DNA from: Patescibacteria group bacterium
GTDB taxonomy: Bacteria; Patescibacteriota; Minisyncoccia; UBA6257; HR35
Length of the DNA stretch: 47,462 nt
Direction: 5' to 3'
NCBI GenBank assembly: GCA_030549895.1
Contig: JAUQQM010000004.1
Span: 1-47,462, forward strand
Both the position numbers and the translations under genes were made by a program. Shown piece after piece: positions 15,767 to 47,404 of this stretch (within the stretch, counting starts at the first letter, position 1; each line of letters opens with the position of its first letter). The notes under the pieces were generated by a model. That model saw nothing but the letters and a program-made list of their open reading frames with translations. It had not been told where the DNA came from and made no database searches.

Positions 15767-16006
15767 ATGAAGAAAATTTTTAAAAAATTAAAATACATTA
15801 TTTTCTTACCATATCTTGTTTTTTTAGGATTCATTTTCTATATTCTTTTTATCTGGCAAGAAAAGTCATCAGGAAGTTTTCTAAGTGGTAAAGCTATGGG
15901 ACTTACAGGTATTTTGATGGTTGCTTTTTATTATACCCTTTTTCTTGTGGCAATTTTTATTATTTCTAAAGTTTTAAAATTTATAATCAAAATTATTAAA
16001 AAATAA
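15767..16006 (+). CDS. small two-TM membrane protein
   Basis: 79 aa, two hydrophobic helices, operon-like spacing. Confidence 0.65.
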   Translation: MKKIFKKLKYIIFLPYLVFLGFIFYILFIWQEKSSGSFLSGKAMGLTGILMVAFYYTLFLVAIFIISKVLKFIIKIIKK

Positions 16007-16049
16007 AATCTCTAATTCCACATTCTTAATTCTATATTCTTAAATTTTG

Positions 16050-16066
16050 ATACCCCTATTGGGTAT
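16050..16066. promoter_or_regulatory. putative CsoR operator upstream of the Cu-ATPase
   Basis: Inverted repeat ATACCC-CTATT-GGGTAT; the same TACC-N7-GGTA geometry occurs upstream of csoR. Confidence 0.7.
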
Positions 16067-16094
16067 TTTATTTTTTAGGTATAATTAAATTGAG

Positions 16095-18881
16095 ATGAAA
16101 AAATATATTTGTCCAATGGGGTGTATTGAGCCACAGGAAGAGCCTGGTAATTGTCATGTCTGTGGAATGAAACTTGTTGAAGTTGAGGATGTTTCTAGCG
16201 AAAGTAGTATTCACATCAGTTCGCGAGAAAGTTCGAAGAATTTCACGGCTCAAAACAAACATCACTGTCACCGTGCTGAAGATTTTTTAAATAAATTTTG
16301 GCTTTCTTTAATTTTGACTATACCTATAATTCTTTATTCTGATGTTTTTCAAAAATTTACTGGAATAAAATTGCCATCTTTCGAGGGGATTCAATATTTA
16401 ATTTTAATTCTTGGCTCAATTATTTTTTTCTATGGTGGCTTTGTTTTTCTTGTTGGTGCTTATCGAGAAATTAAGGCTAAAAATTCTGGTATGATGACTT
16501 TGATTGGTTTAGCCATATCTTGTGCATATGTTTATAGTGTTTTTGCTGTTTTATTTAAAATTGGGCGTGAATTTTTCTGGGAACTTACGAGTTTAATTAC
16601 GATTATGCTTTTAGGACATTATTTTGAAATGAGATCAGTTTCTTCGGCTCAAAGAGCACTGCAGGAAATTGAAAAATTATTACCAGATATCGCTGAGAGA
16701 ATTATTATGTCGCGAACAGTTACGAACCACTCGCGAACCTCTGCGAACAAAAATAAAGAAATTTTATATAAAGATCTTAGCTACAAAATTGTTGGTTTAT
16801 TATTCAAGATAAAGAGAGAATTGGGTCTAGGCCATAAAGAAAAAATATATGCTAATGCTTTCGAAATAGAACTTAAAAACAGTGGAATAAATTTTGAAAG
16901 AGAAAAAGAGATACAGTTAATTTACAACGATAATGTAGTTGGAAAATATAAACCAAATTTTATAATTGAAGATAAAGTAATAATAGAATTTAAAGCATTA
17001 CCTTTAGTCACAAAAAGAGATAAAAAACAAATATGGCATTATCTTAGAGGGACTAAATATACATTAGCACTTTTAGTAAATTTTGGTAAAAAAGATGTAG
17101 AGATATATAGGATAGTACATTCTAATAAAGGTACACATCCTTCAAATGATATTTACGTGAGTTCGCAGAATGGTTCGCATATTAGTTCGCAAGATCGTTC
17201 GCAAGAGTTCGCAACTGAAAATAATGTTCGCAATAGTTCGCGAGAAAGTTCGCAAGAGTTCGCGACTGAAATTATAAAACTCGAAGAACTTAAAGTAGGC
17301 GATATAGTTTTAGTAAGACCTGGAGGAAAAATTCCCACTGATGGAGTTGTTATTGAAGGGAAATCAGAAGTTAATGAAAGTATGATTACTGGTGAAAGTA
17401 AGCCAGTTTTGAAAGAAATAGGTTCAGAAGTTATTGCTGGAACAATTAATGGTGATGGAATGTTGAAAATTAAAGTAACAAAAATTGGTGAAGAGACATT
17501 TTTAGCGGGGATCAAAAGATTAATTAAAGAAGCTCAAGCCTCAAAATCAAAACTTCAGGTTTTAGCTGATGTTTTTGCTAAATATTTAACATTTATCGCT
17601 ATTTTTATTGGTCTTTTAAGTTTTACTCTTTGGCTTTTGGTTAAAAAAGATTTTGCTTTTGCTTTAGAAAGATTAGTTACTATTTTGATTATTGCTTGTC
17701 CTCATGCTTTAGGTTTAGCTATTCCTCTTGTTGTTGCTATTTCAACATCTTTAGCAATTCATAATGGATTTTTAATTAGAAATAGACTCCAACTTGAACT
17801 TGCAAGAAAAATAGATATTGTTTTATTTGATAAAACTGGAACCTTAACTTCAGGAAAATTTAAAGTGAAAAAGATATTAACACAAATCAGTTCGCGAGAG
17901 GGTTCGCATATTAGTTCGCGAGAAGGTTCGCAAGAATTAACGATCCTCCAACTTGCAGCTTCTTTAAGTCAATATTCTTCTCATTTTATCTCTCAAGGAA
18001 TTTTAGAAAAAGCAAAAGAAGTTAGTCGCGAACTTTCGCAAATTTTACCGCAAACAGATGCGAACATTAATGGATTGGAGTTTTTAAAAGTTGAAGATTT
18101 TGAAAATTTACCTGGAAGGGGAGTGAAAGGAAGAATTGGGGGTAAGCTTTATTATTTGGGTGGTGATAATTTATTAAAAGAATTAGGTATTGAAAAACCA
18201 CAAATTACAATAAATAATAATGTTCGCAATAGTTCGCAAGAAAGTTCGCAAGATCGTTCGCAGGAGTTCGCGACTGATATTGTCGGAACGATAGTTTATT
18301 TAATTGAAGAGAAAAATATTTTAGGAGCAATTATTTTGGAAGATGAAATTAGAAAAGAATCTTTTGAAGCAGTTAAGGGGCTTCATAAATTAGGTGTTAG
18401 AGTTTTGATGATAACTGGTGATAAAAAAGAGATTGCTGAGAAAGTTTCAAAAGAGCTTGAAATCGATGAATATTTTGCTGAAGTTTTACCAGAAGATAAA
18501 GTAAATAAAGTTAAAGAACTTCAAAAGCGTGGCTTTAAAGTAATGATGGTTGGAGATGGAATTAATGATGCGCCAGCACTTATGCAAGCTGATGTTGGAG
18601 TTGCTATTGGCGCTGGAACAAATGTTGCCATTGAATCAGCAGGAATAATTTTAGTAAAGAATGATCCGAGAGACATTATTAAGATAATTGAACTTTCAAG
18701 AAAAACTTATCAAAAAATGATAGAAAATTTATTTTGGGCAACTGGTTATAATATTGTTGCTCTTCCTCTTGCTGCTGGGATTTTAGCTTTTAAAGGGATT
18801 TTACTTTCTCCAGCCTTAGGTGCAATTTTTATGAGTTTATCTACAATTATTGTTGCCTTAAATGCTTTAAGGTTAAGTTAA
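16095..18881 (+). CDS. copper-translocating P1B-type ATPase (CPH/CopB-like) with in-frame GxxExxY domain and repeat insertions
   Basis: N-terminal YICPM...CHVCGMKL; TGES, IACPHALGLAIP, FDKTGTLT, TGD, GDGINDAP, YN, MSLST; 928 aa, lengthened by insertions. Confidence 0.95.
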   Translation: MKKYICPMGCIEPQEEPGNCHVCGMKLVEVEDVSSESSIHISSRESSKNFTAQNKHHCHRAEDFLNKFWLSLILTIPIILYSDVFQKFTGIKLPSFEGIQYLILILGSIIFFYGGFVFLVGAYREIKAKNSGMMTLIGLAISCAYVYSVFAVLFKIGREFFWELTSLITIMLLGHYFEMRSVSSAQRALQEIEKLLPDIAERIIMSRTVTNHSRTSANKNKEILYKDLSYKIVGLLFKIKRELGLGHKEKIYANAFEIELKNSGINFEREKEIQLIYNDNVVGKYKPNFIIEDKVIIEFKALPLVTKRDKKQIWHYLRGTKYTLALLVNFGKKDVEIYRIVHSNKGTHPSNDIYVSSQNGSHISSQDRSQEFATENNVRNSSRESSQEFATEIIKLEELKVGDIVLVRPGGKIPTDGVVIEGKSEVNESMITGESKPVLKEIGSEVIAGTINGDGMLKIKVTKIGEETFLAGIKRLIKEAQASKSKLQVLADVFAKYLTFIAIFIGLLSFTLWLLVKKDFAFALERLVTILIIACPHALGLAIPLVVAISTSLAIHNGFLIRNRLQLELARKIDIVLFDKTGTLTSGKFKVKKILTQISSREGSHISSREGSQELTILQLAASLSQYSSHFISQGILEKAKEVSRELSQILPQTDANINGLEFLKVEDFENLPGRGVKGRIGGKLYYLGGDNLLKELGIEKPQITINNNVRNSSQESSQDRSQEFATDIVGTIVYLIEEKNILGAIILEDEIRKESFEAVKGLHKLGVRVLMITGDKKEIAEKVSKELEIDEYFAEVLPEDKVNKVKELQKRGFKVMMVGDGINDAPALMQADVGVAIGAGTNVAIESAGIILVKNDPRDIIKIIELSRKTYQKMIENLFWATGYNIVALPLAAGILAFKGILLSPALGAIFMSLSTIIVALNALRLS
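16212..16247 (+). repeat. GTTCGC micro-repeat array, in frame (HISSRESSKNFT)
   Basis: cacatcaGTTCGCgagaaaGTTCGaagaatttcacg. Confidence 0.7.
16707..17267 (+). mobile_element. about 561-bp in-frame insertion: GxxExxY nuclease-like domain (~16761-17120) flanked by inverted GCGAAC/GTTCGC arrays
   Basis: LSYKIVG...ELGLGHKEKIY...VIIEFKA...QIWHYL...LLVNFG; terminal IR GTCGCGAAC (16709) / GTTCGCGAC (17258); nine GTTCGC copies in 17155-17267; interrupts PDIAERII / EIIKLEELKVGD. Confidence 0.8.
17886..17940 (+). repeat. GTTCGC array (4 copies), in frame (ISSREGSHISSREGSQEL)
   Basis: Read directly from the sequence. Confidence 0.9.
18024..18069 (-). repeat. reverse-orientation (GCGAAC) array, in frame (SRELSQILPQTDANI)
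   Basis: AGTCGCGAACT...TGCGAACATTA; both ends are perfect 11-bp reverse complements of the ends of 18218-18275. Confidence 0.85.
18218..18275 (+). repeat. GTTCGC array (5 copies), in frame (NVRNSSQESSQDRSQEFAT)
   Basis: Near copy of 17222-17267 with one extra unit. Confidence 0.9.
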
Positions 18882-19074
18882 GATGTAGCAAAATTTTTCT
18901 ATTACTTGGAAAGAATAATTAAGAAATTTGCTAATCACTAAAAATAGGATTTATAGCTTATTACTGACTTTCATTTTATATTATTTTTGAAACAGCAGGT
19001 AAAAAGGAAATTAAATGATTTTTGTGGTGTCAACCAATAAAGTTATTTAAATCGTGTTATAATTTTATACGATT

Positions 19075-20895
19075 ATGTTAAAGATTTTTAAAAATAAAAT
19101 TTTTTTATTAGGAGTTGTTATTTTAATTTTTGGATATTTCATCTATAGAAATTTTTTATCTAATAAAAATCAAAATCTTTATACTCTTATTCAAGTTGGA
19201 AGGGGTGACATTACTATTGTAACAAGTGGTACTGGTTATGTTATAGCTGATAAAGAAATAGATATTAAGTCTGAGGTCAGTGGCAATGTTGATTTTGTTG
19301 GTTTTAAGGAAGGTGATTTTGTTAAAAAAAATAATTTAATTGTAAAACTTGATGATCGAGAAGCTCAAAAATTAGTAAGAAATGCTGAAATCAATCTTGA
19401 ATCAGCCAAACTTTCACTTGAAAAACTAAAACAACCAGTAGATACTTATACTTTGGTTCAGGCAGAAAATGCTTTATTAGCTGCTCAGCAAGTAAAACAA
19501 AAAGCCGAAGATGAACTAAAAAAATCTTATGAAGATGGCGTGAATATAATTACAAATGTTTTTTTAGATGTTAATTATATAATTAACGGCTTAAAAGATA
19601 TATTTTTTAAAAATAATATTGCTCCGAATTTTTATTTATACAATATTACTTGGTATGCTAATCAAACTTTAGATCGCGAACGAGCCGCTCAGTATGCAAA
19701 CGAAATTATTAAAGGTTATAATTTAGCTTTTTCAATTTATCTTGATAATTTTAAAAATTATGAAGAACTTTCCAGGTTTTCTGATTTTCAGACTATTGAG
19801 AATTTAATTTTAAAAACTTATGAAATGGTTAAAGTTGTTGCGGATGTTGTTAAAACTTCAAAAAATTTTGTTGATTTTGTGGTTAATTATATGAAAGATA
19901 AAGACCTCGAAATTCCATCTCTTGTTTTAAATCATCAAATTAATCTTGAGTCTTTTACTTTGAAAATCAATAATAATCTTTCAAGTTTATTAAATATTAA
20001 AACAGCAATTCAAACAAATAAAGATAATGTAATCAGCGCTGAGAGATCTGTTATTGAAAAAAGCGAATATCTTCAAAAACTAAAAAAAGGACCAGACGAG
20101 CTTGATTTAAAATCAGCTGAACTTTTAGTAAAGCAAAGAGAAAATGAACTTATGGACGCTAGAGAAAAGATAAATGATTATTATATTAGAGCTCCATTTG
20201 ATGGAGTTATTACAAAGATTAACGTAAAAAGCGGAGACTCTATAGAAAGTGGAAAAGTAGTAGCTACTTTATCTACTAATAAAAAAATAGCTGAAATTGT
20301 TTTAAATGAGGTTGATGTTACTAAAGTTAATATTAATGATGAGGCTTTTTTAACTTTCGACGCTTTACCAGAAGTTAGGTTAAAAGGTAAGGTAGTTTCC
20401 ATAAATCCAGCTGGCGAAATTTCTCAGGGAGTAGTTAGTTATAAAATTAAAATTGCTTTTGAAAATAACCCTCAGGTAAAAATAGGAATGACTGTTAATG
20501 CTGAAATAATTAATGAAAAAAAAGAAAATGTTTTAGTTGTTCCTAATCAAGCCGTTAAAAAATTTCAAGATAAAATATTTGTTGAAGTACCCGACGAAAG
20601 AGATTTAAATATTTTAAATAAAAAAATTTATAATTTAGAAAATTTTGGAATAAATAGTAATAAAAGAATAATTAGCCTTAATTTAAATTATCAGCCTAAA
20701 ATGAAATTTATTAAAACAGGTTTAAGCGATGAAAAAAATATTGAAGTTTTAGAAGGTTTAAAAGAAGGAGAATGGGTGATTATTAAGTCATCAATAATTA
20801 ATCAAAAGTCATCAAATAATGAAGAACAAGGATTTTTTCAAAGATTTTTCCCTCAGCCAAGGAGATTTATTCGTTCTCCTGGAATTAAACAATGA
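19075..20895 (+). CDS. efflux periplasmic adaptor subunit (MacA/HlyD-like) with long coiled coil
   Basis: N-terminal TM, lipoyl halves (SEVSGNV...EGDFVKK; IRAPFDGVI...GD), NEVDV, GMTVNAEI, VPNQAV, TGLSD...EVLEGL. Confidence 0.88.
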   Translation: MLKIFKNKIFLLGVVILIFGYFIYRNFLSNKNQNLYTLIQVGRGDITIVTSGTGYVIADKEIDIKSEVSGNVDFVGFKEGDFVKKNNLIVKLDDREAQKLVRNAEINLESAKLSLEKLKQPVDTYTLVQAENALLAAQQVKQKAEDELKKSYEDGVNIITNVFLDVNYIINGLKDIFFKNNIAPNFYLYNITWYANQTLDRERAAQYANEIIKGYNLAFSIYLDNFKNYEELSRFSDFQTIENLILKTYEMVKVVADVVKTSKNFVDFVVNYMKDKDLEIPSLVLNHQINLESFTLKINNNLSSLLNIKTAIQTNKDNVISAERSVIEKSEYLQKLKKGPDELDLKSAELLVKQRENELMDAREKINDYYIRAPFDGVITKINVKSGDSIESGKVVATLSTNKKIAEIVLNEVDVTKVNINDEAFLTFDALPEVRLKGKVVSINPAGEISQGVVSYKIKIAFENNPQVKIGMTVNAEIINEKKENVLVVPNQAVKKFQDKIFVEVPDERDLNILNKKIYNLENFGINSNKRIISLNLNYQPKMKFIKTGLSDEKNIEVLEGLKEGEWVIIKSSIINQKSSNNEEQGFFQRFFPQPRRFIRSPGIKQ

Positions 20896-26883: not shown

Positions 26884-27972
26884 ATGGTAAAGAAAATTCA
26901 AAAGGAAAATAAAAATTATTATCAATGTGAAATTTGTGGCTATTATTATGAAAGTGAAGGATTAGCAAAAGAGTGTGAAAAGTGGTGTCAAGAGTGCAAA
27001 AGCTGTAATTTAGAGATTATAAAACAAAGCATTGGTAGGGAAGAGATTGAAAAACGAAAAGTATTTAATTTTGGTTCGTTGGTTTTGGGGGTTTTGCTTG
27101 GTGGTCTAATTGGTAGTTCAGCAGTTTTTTTGATGAATTATAAATTAGAAAGCAATAAGCAAACTTCGCTTTCTTTTGTTCAGCAAGTGGTGGCGAATGT
27201 TTTACCAAGAGAGGGATTTAAAACAAAATTAGTTTTGGGTGATGCTGTTAAAAAAATGGTTGATTGTGGGGTAATTGATTTAGAAAAAATGAAGAAAATT
27301 TATAATGGGCAAATTCCTGAATATTTTCAAAAATTAATTAATGGTTATTATGAGCCTTTAGTTATTGATCAAGAAACAGCTAATTACCTTTTAAATATTT
27401 TTTGGCCTTTGGGACTTTCAAACAAAACTGAATTTAATAAAAATATTCCTTTTACTGAGAAAGATTTACCTTATTTAGCTTCAACTGGTGGTTGGTGGTT
27501 AGGTAAGAAAGATAATGGAGCTGAATATTTTAATAAATGTGAAATTATAAAATTAACTCCTAAGCAAGAGGAAATTGTTTATGAAGTAGCTCAAAATACT
27601 TTTAGGCCTTGTTGTGATAATTCAACTTTTGCTCAAGATTGTAATCATGGTTCAGCTTTACTTGGAGCTTTAGAACTTGCAGCCAGTCAAGGATATTCAA
27701 AAGATGAACTTTATAAATTGGCTCTTCAGTTAAATTCTTTTTGGTTTCCTCAAAATTATGTTAAGATTGCTTTATATAAAAAGTTAGTTGAAAATACCGA
27801 CTGGCCAATTCATGCTGGTTCGCGAGAAAGTTCGCAAGAGTTAGCATTAATAAAAGAAATTATGTCAGTTAAATATTCTTCAATTTCGGGTTATCTTCAA
27901 AACGTCGAACAAAAATTAGCAAAATTAAATCTGCCAGAATTTCAGTCATCTGGCGGAAGTTGTGGATTATAA
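26884..27972 (+). CDS. uncharacterised Cys-rich membrane-anchored protein
   Basis: N-terminal CEICG...C..C..C..C, one TM, RPCC...DCNHG, C-terminal GGSCGL; carries an in-frame GTTCGC array. Confidence 0.75.
   Translation: MVKKIQKENKNYYQCEICGYYYESEGLAKECEKWCQECKSCNLEIIKQSIGREEIEKRKVFNFGSLVLGVLLGGLIGSSAVFLMNYKLESNKQTSLSFVQQVVANVLPREGFKTKLVLGDAVKKMVDCGVIDLEKMKKIYNGQIPEYFQKLINGYYEPLVIDQETANYLLNIFWPLGLSNKTEFNKNIPFTEKDLPYLASTGGWWLGKKDNGAEYFNKCEIIKLTPKQEEIVYEVAQNTFRPCCDNSTFAQDCNHGSALLGALELAASQGYSKDELYKLALQLNSFWFPQNYVKIALYKKLVENTDWPIHAGSRESSQELALIKEIMSVKYSSISGYLQNVEQKLAKLNLPEFQSSGGSCGL
27817..27846 (+). repeat. GTTCGC array, in frame (GSRESSQELA)
   Basis: gGTTCGCgagaaaGTTCGCaagagttagca; 24 nt identical to part of the 17237-17267 array. 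Confidence 0.85.
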
Positions 27973-27974
27973 AA

Positions 27975-28454
27975 ATGAAAAACAAAAGTATAATTTTAGG
28001 GTTAATAATAGGTTTTCTTTTAGTAGGGTCATTTGTTGTTTTAGTAAAAAATCAATCTTCAAAACAAACTAAATTTTCTGGTATGCTAGTAACTCTTTAT
28101 AAATCACCGACTTGTGATTGTTGTGCCCAATACGCAAATTATTTAAAAGCAAATGGCTTTAAAATTGAAGTTAGAAAAGTTTCTGATCAAGAACTTGAAA
28201 ATATTAAGAGGCAAAATAATATTCCTTATAATTTATGGTCTTGTCATACAGTTTTTTTAAATAATTATTTTGTTGAAGGTCATGTTCCAGTTGAGGCAAT
28301 TGAAAAACTTTTAACTGAAAAACCAGAAATTAATGGTATTGCTCTTCCAGGAATGCCTTCTGGCTCCCCTGGGATGCCAGGAATTAAATTTTATCCATTT
28401 AAAATTCATTCAGTCAAAGACGGTAAATATTTAGGAATTTTTATTCAAATCTAA
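27975..28454 (+). CDS. DUF411 (CopG-like) metal-binding protein
   Basis: YKSPTCDCC, SCHT, VEGHVP, ALPGMPSGSPGM. Confidence 0.9.
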   Translation: MKNKSIILGLIIGFLLVGSFVVLVKNQSSKQTKFSGMLVTLYKSPTCDCCAQYANYLKANGFKIEVRKVSDQELENIKRQNNIPYNLWSCHTVFLNNYFVEGHVPVEAIEKLLTEKPEINGIALPGMPSGSPGMPGIKFYPFKIHSVKDGKYLGIFIQI

Positions 28455-47194: not shown

Positions 47195-47404
47195 TGATTT
47201 AATAATTTTCTAAGTTATAATTTAATTTATGAATTCGCGGAGATATAAGGGTTATAAAATAACACTTATATCTCTGAAAAATTATGAAAAATAAATCATG
47301 ATTTAATAATTTTCTAAGTTATAATTTAATTTATGAATTCGCGGAGATATAAGGGTTATAAAATAACACTTATATCTCTGAAAAATTATGAAAAATAAAT
47401 CATG
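47195..47404 (+). repeat. exact 104-bp tandem duplication containing promoter-like boxes and a hairpin
   Basis: 47195-47298 equals 47299-47402; each copy has TATAAT and GAGATATAAG-g-GTTAT-aaa-ATAAC-a-CTTATATCTC. Confidence 0.92.

Follow-up and report, generated by a model that had tools for sequence, protein, structure and literature searches.

The gene for a CopB-like copper P1B-type ATPase in a Patescibacteria group bacterium (contig JAUQQM010000004.1 of assembly GCA_030549895.1; genome G000 below) is interrupted in frame by a cassette that encodes a GxxExxY/PDDEXK_3 nuclease-fold domain between two mutually inverted arrays of a short repeat, which we call arms. The window analysed is the whole 47.5-kb contig (C4), one of 8 in a genome of 0.47 Mb and 28% G+C. 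We read the insert as a selfish nuclease-bearing cassette that is probably translated as a tolerated loop domain of its host protein, with the window copy in decay, and we give this reading a probability of roughly two in three. The evidence comes from the architecture of the insert, the distribution of related cassettes, polymorphism at the ATPase site, purifying selection on the domain, and interrupted essential genes that are the only copies in their genomes.

Architecture of the cassette

The host gene and the parts of the cassette are as follows.

16095..18881, + strand: host gene, CopB-like copper P1B-type ATPase of 928 aa, with an HMBD at its N terminus and a CPH motif in its membrane part
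16707..17267, + strand: inserted cassette, 561 nt or 187 codons, in frame, where the actuator domain's first beta-hairpin turns
16709..16749, + strand: left arm of four (C/T/A)CGAAC-type units, of which three are exactly GCGAAC; translation SRTVTNHSRTSAN
16770..17111, + strand: GxxExxY/PDDEXK_3 nuclease-fold domain, from profile matches; omega 0.06 against the copy in genome G018
16956..16958, + strand: codon AAT (Asn63) at the conserved catalytic-type Asp of P-D-F, from the domain alignment and contigs
17155..17267, + strand: right arm, nine GTTCGC units at 10-12 nt spacing; translation SSQNGSHISSQDRSQEFATENNVRNSSRESSQEFAT

The open reading frame (ORF) at 16095..18881 scores 549 bits against TIGR01511, a heavy-metal P-type ATPase family (cutoff 397), and its actuator, phosphorylation and nucleotide-binding domains are all found (PF00122 E1-E2_ATPase at residues 391-553 and PF00702 at residues 573-833), which places it among the copper P1B-type ATPases. 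Alignment to solved Cu-ATPases (PDB, HMA4) ends at residue 206 and restarts at 394. Within this gap, residues 226-339 match PF13366 PDDEXK_3 over profile positions 1-116 of 117 (104 bits, cutoff 22, E 8e-30) and TIGR04256 GxxExxY over its full length (109.3 bits, cutoff 35), so that the domain is a GxxExxY member by profile; PDDEXK_3 is the only domain found in the insert. An earlier sequence-only reading of this stretch had proposed a 187-codon GxxExxY module in frame in a Cu-ATPase, and the ORF and the three family profiles bear this out. GxxExxY proteins are normally stand-alone proteins of about 125 aa, whereas this domain is internal to the 928-aa ORF. It retains E24, E73 and K75 of the catalytic-type residues, with Asn in place of D63. 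Against the PDB, the domain profile returned one match, T7 endonuclease I (3cae), which is non-significant (E 0.59) and in which the PDF...ExK motifs are aligned.

The cassette is preceded by ...PDIAERII and followed by EIIKLEELKVGD, and its first codon is ATG. Empty orthologues read AELE(N/D/S)G(K/R)xxxLNELK, where G000 has AERII, the insert and then EIIKLEELK. The window contains 29 occurrences of GTTCGC or its complement, where 2.9 would be expected (at most 8 in 100 shuffles), with three complementary copies at 16712-16748 and nine direct copies at 17161-17263, and the spaced form GTTCGC-N6-GTTCGC occurs 10 times against 0 in 100 shuffles. The right arm amounts to 1.9 copies of a 51-nt higher-order unit. 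The outer ends (16709-16727 and 17248-17266) are inverted over 19 nt with 84% complementarity, so the GCGAAC left arm, the nine-unit GTTCGC right arm and the inverted ends of about 19 bp are all as first described from the sequence. The arms at 16709-16749 and 17224-17266 are terminal inverted repeats of the kind that marks MITEs (miniature transposable elements with inverted repeats) and cut-and-paste DNA transposons. As single strands, the left arm and the outermost right-arm copy (17224-17266) are predicted to form 35 minimum-free-energy pairs, 16709 with 17266, at -51.5 kcal/mol against -23.7 +/- 3.9 for 300 shuffles, the best of which reached -34.9.

A profile scan found no Hint/intein family in the insert, whose first residue is M and whose last is T, with E next in the host. 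Rfam covariance models gave 0 matches at E <= 1 on both strands of 15900-19100, and PHROGs and PADLOC searches matched no family.

Distribution, hosts and ends of the cassette family

In an even sample of the order, the GxxExxY domain occurs in 54 of 151 genomes, and 25 of the 98 matches listed lie in open frames of at least 250 aa, one of which (G103) is an artefact of an N run. The hosts in this sample are RecG, LepA, SecA, RtcB, an NDH-2-type oxidoreductase and GT4 glycosyltransferases. When one genome from each of 185,579 species was scanned, 353 relatives of the fused-type domain came out, nearly all labelled as metagenome-assembled genomes of the Patescibacteria/Candidate Phyla Radiation (CPR), and our analyses use the best 80 (eight of these loci come from the same genomes as order-sample loci, as identical rows). 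At 78 of the 80, at least 60 aa are open on both sides, and the remaining 2 are cut by contig ends. Their hosts are LepA (50), RecG (21), class-I aminoacyl-tRNA synthetases (aaRS; 4), and Cu-ATPase, NDH-2, SecA, GT4 and Wzy_C with one each. A profile search of 1.84 billion representatives returned 17,403 proteins (50%-identity clusters) at E <= 1e-3; among the best 150 of them, 58 are at least 300 aa long. Twenty proteins were scanned, and 16 have a host family and 4 have PDDEXK_3 only, adding GatB, asparagine synthase, transketolase and a second ATPase site to the hosts and bringing the total to 12 host protein families, RtcB included. Only 7 proteins, including 5 RecG fusions, came out of a word-indexed search for longer forms, whose sensitivity is too low for a census. 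Fusion in frame with unrelated hosts, which the sequence-only reading had suggested surveying, is thus the rule in the closest domain clade, and its recurrence at 78 of 80 loci and in 12 host families supports the idea of a mobile or selfish element that keeps the host frame.

The insertion sites are loops adjoining catalytic cores. Specifically, the LepA site lies between the VRMxY and YILNLIDTPGH strands of the G domain, the RecG site between DEQHRFGV and SATPIPRT, and the SecA site at position 155/156 of the DEAD-domain profile. The LepA and RecG genes of G000 itself are empty.

This host range (conserved sites of LepA, RecG, SecA, aaRS, RtcB and the ATPase) resembles that of inteins, and one RtcB host has a canonical intein end upstream of its cassette, which together would favour an unconventional intein spliced or cleaved out of the protein. 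Such an intein would have to work with no Hint/intein family in the insert and with junction residues that are not conserved nucleophiles (M at the start and T before E in the ATPase; H at the start and E or V before Y in LepA), and its flanks are low-complexity translations of DNA repeats that vary between elements; we consider it very improbable.

Several host genes have further features of their own. In the RtcB ORF of G014:C22 (L030), the C-terminal end of an intein, HNFIANNFVVSNC (PF14890, 25.9 bits, which is under the cutoff), is followed downstream by the GxxExxY cassette, so that two kinds of in-frame selfish element share one host gene. A 703-aa metagenome LeuRS-type fragment (P0022) carries the GxxExxY domain plus a separate NUDIX domain between its editing and catalytic parts. 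P0020, P0023, P0030, P0040 and about 30 more of the best 150 proteins are 250-275 aa long and consist of a tandem pair of GxxExxY domains.

All fused cassettes that we read have a left array (for example ACGCAGAT, ACGCGGAA or ACGCAGAC) and a right array that is its reverse complement, and most stand-alone genes of the order are armed in the same manner (for example TACGAAT/ATTCGTA and CGCTGAT/ATCAGCG). Counting the stand-alone genes, 95 of 116 elements have a 6-mer in four or more copies, in direct orientation in the left arm and as the reverse complement in the right. Unit spacing across the 116 elements is 10 nt in 116 cases, 11 nt in 52 and 12 nt in 28, with a second peak of 68 cases at 21-22 nt; the 10-11 nt spacing matches a single turn of the DNA helix and is not divisible by three. 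Inverted sharing of 6-mers between 130-nt flanks exceeds all 200 shuffles at 23 of 30 loci, and the 95th percentile of 266 random windows at 19 of 30. The units differ among cassettes of one genome (G065, G037, G155, G050) and hence belong to the element, not to the host. Arms of fused copies have 51% G+C and 0.01 in-frame stops per 100 nt, against 31% G+C and 2.7 stops in stand-alone arms. The proposal that fused arms are stop-free in all three frames was rejected, with 1.1 and 2.7 stops per 100 nt out of frame.

The association between arms and GxxExxY genes is frequent, not universal: a stand-alone gene of G013 (L137), L014 and a Persicobacter gene have no arms. Beyond the Patescibacteria, 3 of 6 plasmid-borne genes of other phyla have inverted flanks (Bacteroides finegoldii, Bernardetia and Treponema; the Bacteroides arrays are CACAGAGG), another is flanked by a 50-nt direct repeat, a fifth has an array on the left side only, and the last has nothing of the kind. 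The survey for inverted arrays that the sequence-only reading had called for thus came out in favour of the association. The plasmid genes adjoin unrelated housekeeping genes on both sides, such as fabD and fabG. In a Sphingomonas plasmid (L148) and a Bacteroides plasmid (L147) the gene sits inside an operon in the same orientation with 30-60 nt spacers (fabD/fabG; radA/FAD-dependent protein). In L144, a plasmid of Fusobacteria bacterium ZRK30, the flanks are a direct repeat of ~50 nt that includes the ribosome-binding region, with no inverted arrays, which looks like a duplicated intergenic target.

In the LepA cassettes, the opening 9-15 nt reverse-complement the host codons V-R-M-x-Y just upstream, and the closing 9-19 nt do so for the host codons Y-I-L-N-L just downstream. 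As a consequence, each LepA junction falls in a hairpin loop or at the centre of a palindrome. These hairpins covary with synonymous host codons (40-42 distinct host arms among 44 loci). In a test of cognate against non-cognate stems, the right stem has at least 8 perfect bp at 33 of 44 loci, compared with 15% of non-cognate pairings and 0.2% of random coding positions, and the left stem reaches that length at 18 of 44 against 3.8%; a MAFFT alignment had put the variable loops out of register. At RecG, a left hairpin of at least 7 bp occurs at 7 of 19 loci against 4.5% of controls.

These foldable ends would also suit excision at the RNA level, in which arms or junction hairpins fold, an endonuclease (possibly the GxxExxY protein) cuts at the base and a ligase such as RtcB rejoins the host message. 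The stem predicted in G000 closes exactly at both junctions (35 pairs, -51.5 against -23.7 kcal/mol), arm units covary between the two sides in 95 of 116 elements, RtcB genes are present in these genomes, and tRNA-intron splicing is listed among PD-(D/E)xK superfamily roles in the accessible text of a review. Under excision, however, the right arm would need no open frame, yet both sides are open at 78 of 80 loci, and the arms contain 0.01 in-frame stops per 100 nt. In addition, pairing is confined to the units and skips the spacers, a phasing of 10-11 nt is more suggestive of duplex DNA than of an RNA stem, Rfam has no match, and intergenic stand-alone copies carry the same arms though they have nothing to splice; as a weak further point, one RNA-library contig is unspliced over the right junction. 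We regard RNA-level excision as unlikely. The sequence-only reading had offered tolerated fusion and RNA-level removal as a pair, and the evidence leans to the former. The only RNA run, X13, contains 0.08 of the sampled words, covers 10 of 30 bins and has nothing upstream of 17211 except 1.47 in the first bin (16095-16187), too sparse to test splicing.

Presence, decay and selection at the ATPase site

Among 40 relatives of G000, the same cassette occupies the same site in G018, which belongs to another genus of the same family and is 79% identical over residues 1-524 and 84% in the domain. The cassette is absent from the 8 orthologues in which the site was read (G016, G009, G010, G002, G008, G014, G005 and G013). 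G016, G010, G002, G008 and G014 have AELE(N/D/S)G(K/R)xxxL(N/D)ELK there, and G009 and G005 have similar short hairpins. The closest orthologue, G013 (89-95% identity), is likewise empty of the cassette and has an unrelated 30-aa filler, which shows no array and which we do not call a remnant. The empty G010 and the filled G018 are congeners. Judged by this alignment of CopB orthologues, which the sequence-only reading had proposed as a way of finding empty alleles, the fusion is not fixed, and its patchy presence at the actuator hairpin turn requires at least two gain or loss events.

Two other relatives show related states. At the same site in G020, about nine GCGAAC-type left units run directly into a GTTCGC right array, nuclease-less and with one TAG. 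The G020 locus (G020:C6, L005) consists of a CsoR-like repressor gene, an ATG, ~130 nt of left array, ~190 nt of right array and then the ATPase from the actuator domain onwards; the N-terminal membrane half of this truncated ATPase is gone from the locus. A metagenome ATPase fragment (P0061, 79% core identity) has a complete GxxExxY cassette after DKTGTLTSGRFKVKSIFT, at exactly the position of the nuclease-less array at 17883-17947 in G000, and only a short filler at its actuator hairpin.

Population data come from Logan contigs, not reads, of hot-spring metagenome runs at a likeness of at least 85%. A 648-nt contig of run X1 equals 16603-17250 with 0 differences, and contigs of X2 (16711-17190) and X3 (16710-17248) have 2 differences each; X1 may be the source sample of the window. 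In both the X2 and X3 contigs, 16956 A>G changes AAT (Asn) to GAT (Asp). Contigs of three runs therefore support the assembly, which bears on the chance, already raised from the sequence, that the fusion is a chimera of a repeat-rich metagenome bin. The arm repeats do recur elsewhere in the genome and the window is a metagenome-assembled contig, yet the zero-difference X1 contig spans the left junction, the X2 and X3 contigs are near-identical, the same insert sits at the same site in an independently assembled genome of another genus (L002/L043) and the frame is perfect at both junctions, so that we give a chimera a negligible chance.

Other alleles coexist in these communities. Contigs joining 16689->17269 (X1 depth 412, side 51; also in X3) represent an element-less allele, and an arms-only allele has the joint 16739->17244 with CTG between, in frame (X2 and X3; side 30). 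The X3 arms-only contig extends to 17519 with 21 differences and thus comes from a roughly 92% relative. Further joints remove each of the solo arrays described below or change the unit number by 12 or 36 nt. Summed depth in the insert is 186/45/18 (X1/X2/X3), against ~360-1900/180-1900/85-720 in the flanking ATPase; because these are sums over related organisms, the contrast is only a hint that most related alleles are without the insert. Presence or absence at one conserved site, with related elements at the same site, is the pattern of a homing gene.

Nuclease-less arrays occur at four further sites in the ATPase ORF, all four being insertions relative to orthologues such as G016, and a fifth lies in another ORF. 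None of these, nor the arrays on contig C6 described below, had been remarked in the sequence-only reading.

16203..16252, + strand: solo array in right-arm orientation, in the linker after the N-terminal metal-binding domain; array-free allele with the joint 16186->16278
17883..17947, + strand: solo array (site B) of four GTTCGC units, located where the nucleotide-binding domain begins; copy-number variant 17889->17926
18024..18069, - strand: solo array in left-arm orientation; array-free alleles in all three DNA runs (18021->18070, 18021->18082)
18216..18277, + strand: solo array of five GTTCGC units; array-free allele 18201->18283 and an allele with an added 12-nt unit, inserted behind 18250
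27818..27835, + strand: two-unit GTTCGC array in frame in ORF 26884..27972; translation GSRESSQEL

The window copy is probably in decay, because the catalytic-type Asp is Asn and because four nuclease-less arrays lie in the same ATPase. The stages of decay represented here would be Asp63Asn (with Asp in sister strains), the arms-only allele, the solo arrays and the empty alleles. G000 has a single GxxExxY domain, the one in the ATPase insert.

In the N-terminal linker of the G018 ATPase (L002), a different in-frame array, VVQTTADYTQTTADEMQTTADE, stands where G000 has its SSESS array, so that two unit types occupy the same place in two genera. Contig C6 of G000 has intergenic arrays of nine (459-600) and fourteen (1903-2105) GCGAAC units, the only other large arrays in the genome. 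They form tandem higher-order units of ~51-55 nt directly after the stops of two gene ends, which finish ...YNRA(L/F)SD.EIKALYEATK. ORF 27960-28454, next to the array-bearing ORF 26884-27972, has a CxCC motif. At 47195-47404, ~60 nt from the contig end, lies a perfect tandem duplication (104-nt unit, 2.0 copies, 100% identical) that includes an ATG-led start, ATGAAAAATAAATCATG..., and that may be a recent duplication or an assembly artefact.

Across 101 distinct domains, E24 is kept in 100, D63 in 99, E73 in 100 and K75 in 101, and the window copy is one of two with Asn63. Between G000 and G018 the domain has an omega of 0.06 (dN 0.074, dS 1.22), and the two host segments have 0.12 and 0.14 (dS 0.64 and 0.46). 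The low value for the domain indicates that it is kept as a protein. SecA is essential in bacteria. In G131 (98% complete), the only SecA_DEAD match is split in two, with both halves inside the interrupted ORF, and for lepA the interrupted ORF gives the best match in each of five genomes (above cutoff in 4 and just under it in G148), with no second lepA. With an essential gene interrupted in its sole copy, we infer that interrupted genes must yield a working protein.

In a maximum-likelihood tree (109 rows, 114 columns, from a quick search with many forks unresolved), the host label changes 14 times, against a minimum of 9 and a shuffled mean of 49.7, and none of 200 shuffles is as low. The sister group of the ATPase pair is the NDH-2 pair (96), within a mostly LepA clade that is weakly supported. 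Three aaRS copies are nested in a LepA clade (98) and the Wzy copy in a RecG clade, and 10 of the 13 stand-alone genes make up a clade of their own. This pattern would fit site-faithful spread with rare jumps; kin share labels, so that the tree by itself does not prove horizontal movement.

The same data could describe a domesticated, functional domain fusion that is inherited vertically, with the repeats as mere linkers. An omega of 0.06, conserved catalytic residues, the clustering of domains by host gene and a dS of the ATPase copy that is not below its flanks are all as such a fusion would have them. It is nevertheless improbable, since the twelve host families (GTPase, helicase, translocase, synthetases, ion pump, glycosyltransferases and others) are unrelated and share no common function, presence is patchy within families and genera, and presence/absence and arms-only alleles occur together in single communities. 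Nor would protein linkers be required to be reverse complements at the DNA level, as the arms are, and stand-alone genes are armed too.

A proposed life cycle and its relation to known systems

We propose that the selfish cassette consists of a gene for a ~115-aa PD-(D/E)xK-fold nuclease plus two arms, each arm repeating a 6-8 nt unit about once per helical turn and the right arm being the reverse complement of the left. One Patescibacteria clade of these elements would live in frame in surface loops of conserved, often essential proteins and be translated with them, the arms serving as hydrophilic linkers from which the ~115-aa domain could hang from its loop. No splicing would be required, and the host protein would stay functional. 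Spread would be mostly to the same site of the same gene, in a homing-like manner, and only rarely to a new gene. We take the nuclease to be the likely motor and the arms to be likely cis-acting ends, which would work as phased binding sites or, alternatively, as a stem by which single-stranded nucleic acid holds the two junctions side by side. Decay would proceed by point mutation, by internal deletion that leaves only the arms, and by array shrinkage.

A number of observations weigh against this proposal of a tolerated selfish cassette. We know of no GxxExxY protein with a known biochemical activity. Homing needs no terminal repeats, so plain homing leaves the arms unexplained. The cassette junctions show no clear target-site duplication, and the insert contains no DDE, tyrosine, serine or HUH transposase or recombinase; on these absences we agree with the sequence-only reading, which had also seen no intein residues, and together with the lack of a Hint domain and of an Rfam family they mean that the insert is not an intein, a known intron or a classical transposon. 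A candidate vector is lacking, as no relative of the domain was found in 2.9 million viral contigs. The ATPase cassette has no LepA-like junction hairpins (4-5 bp only), its arms reaching the junctions instead. At the ATPase site, loss and decay are documented and gain is not, and the domain dS of 1.22, higher than the 0.46-0.64 of the host flanks, would argue against recent transfer and fit an old presence followed by losses. We infer translation of the fusion from open frames, and the sole RNA evidence is one 85-nt RNA-library contig that crosses the right junction unspliced and is possibly carried-over DNA. Finally, the available text of a 2012 survey of the PD-(D/E)xK superfamily gives the function of GxxExxY/PDDEXK_3 as 'Unknown'.

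A broader interpretation, which we offer tentatively and would sooner doubt than assert, is that GxxExxY genes overall are the motor of an unrecognised class of prokaryotic mobile elements, made of a lone ~115-aa PD-(D/E)xK nuclease with terminal inverted arrays in phase with the helical turn and including a Patescibacteria sub-clade specialised for splicing-free residence, in frame, within essential genes. In some lineages of this class the ends would reverse-complement the flanking target, making each junction a palindrome. Both the LepA junction palindromes and T7 endonuclease I, a non-significant lead at E 0.59, suggest cut-and-rejoin chemistry on a hairpin or cruciform, akin to junction or telomere resolution as opposed to classical homing or DDE transposition. 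Short in-frame arrays in Patescibacteria proteins would then be footprints of cassettes.

We found no description of these cassettes in a literature search, to which supplements and most subscription journals were closed. The accessible part of a paper on rRNA insertions in Patescibacteria makes no mention of the element, and the literature found to name GxxExxY holds nothing bearing on the cassettes. As far as could be searched, therefore, the cassette family is widespread and undescribed. It offers a testable role for a large family (17,403 clusters) whose function the available survey text leaves as 'Unknown'. It also suggests that selfish nuclease genes can persist in essential genes (SecA, LepA, RecG, aaRS, GatB) without RNA or protein splicing, for which one phage case was the only comparable instance in the literature searched. 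Low-complexity inserts such as SSRESS and TQINAD in Patescibacteria proteins would be explained as cassette arms or remnants, which bears on annotation and structure prediction. Phased inverted arrays and target-complementary hairpins point to an undescribed DNA (or RNA) transaction, and the nucleases, if sequence- or structure-specific, could become new reagents.

The cassette shares features with several known systems. Like inteins with homing endonucleases, it is found in frame at conserved sites of conserved proteins, sporadically and monophyletic by site, and inteins pass through a homing cycle of invasion, decay and loss. It differs from them in having no Hint domain or conserved splice residues, whereas inteins have no DNA-level inverted arms. 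In REP/RAYT systems (REPIN), a small gene is flanked by inverted copies of its own short repeat and nuclease-less repeats are scattered; RAYTs, however, are HUH/Y1 transposases and REPs are intergenic, whereas the cassette has a PD-(D/E)xK fold and lies, with its repeats, in frame inside genes. I-Ssp6803I is a small PD-(D/E)xK homing endonuclease. T7 endonuclease I, a junction-resolving enzyme, is likewise a small PD-(D/E)xK protein, and at E 0.59 we claim no membership for the cassette domain.

Closer still are two kinds of in-frame insertion. Rickettsia palindromic elements (RPEs), or in-frame MITEs, are short palindromic selfish DNAs that sit in frame in unrelated housekeeping genes and are translated; as described in the accessible text of PMC10969869, they are about 150 bp long and have no enzyme and no described autonomous partner. 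The arms-only and solo arrays of the window behave like RPEs, and here a nuclease-bearing parent form occurs at the same sites. The nearest described thing, judging from the part of the report available (PMC11855218), is the ShiLan-type 'homing insertion element' in an actinophage DNA methylase, which resembles the cassette in leaving the host frame open, in showing no intein or intron features, in carrying a homing-type endonuclease and in its proposed retention in the protein as a loop. The ATPase insert is likewise open in the host frame and without splicing features. In the ShiLan element, as that text describes it, the HNH gene is out of frame, no terminal arrays are reported and the host is one phage gene family, whereas the cassette has its PD-(D/E)xK (PDDEXK_3) domain in frame, phased inverted arrays, and hosts in 12 cellular protein families.

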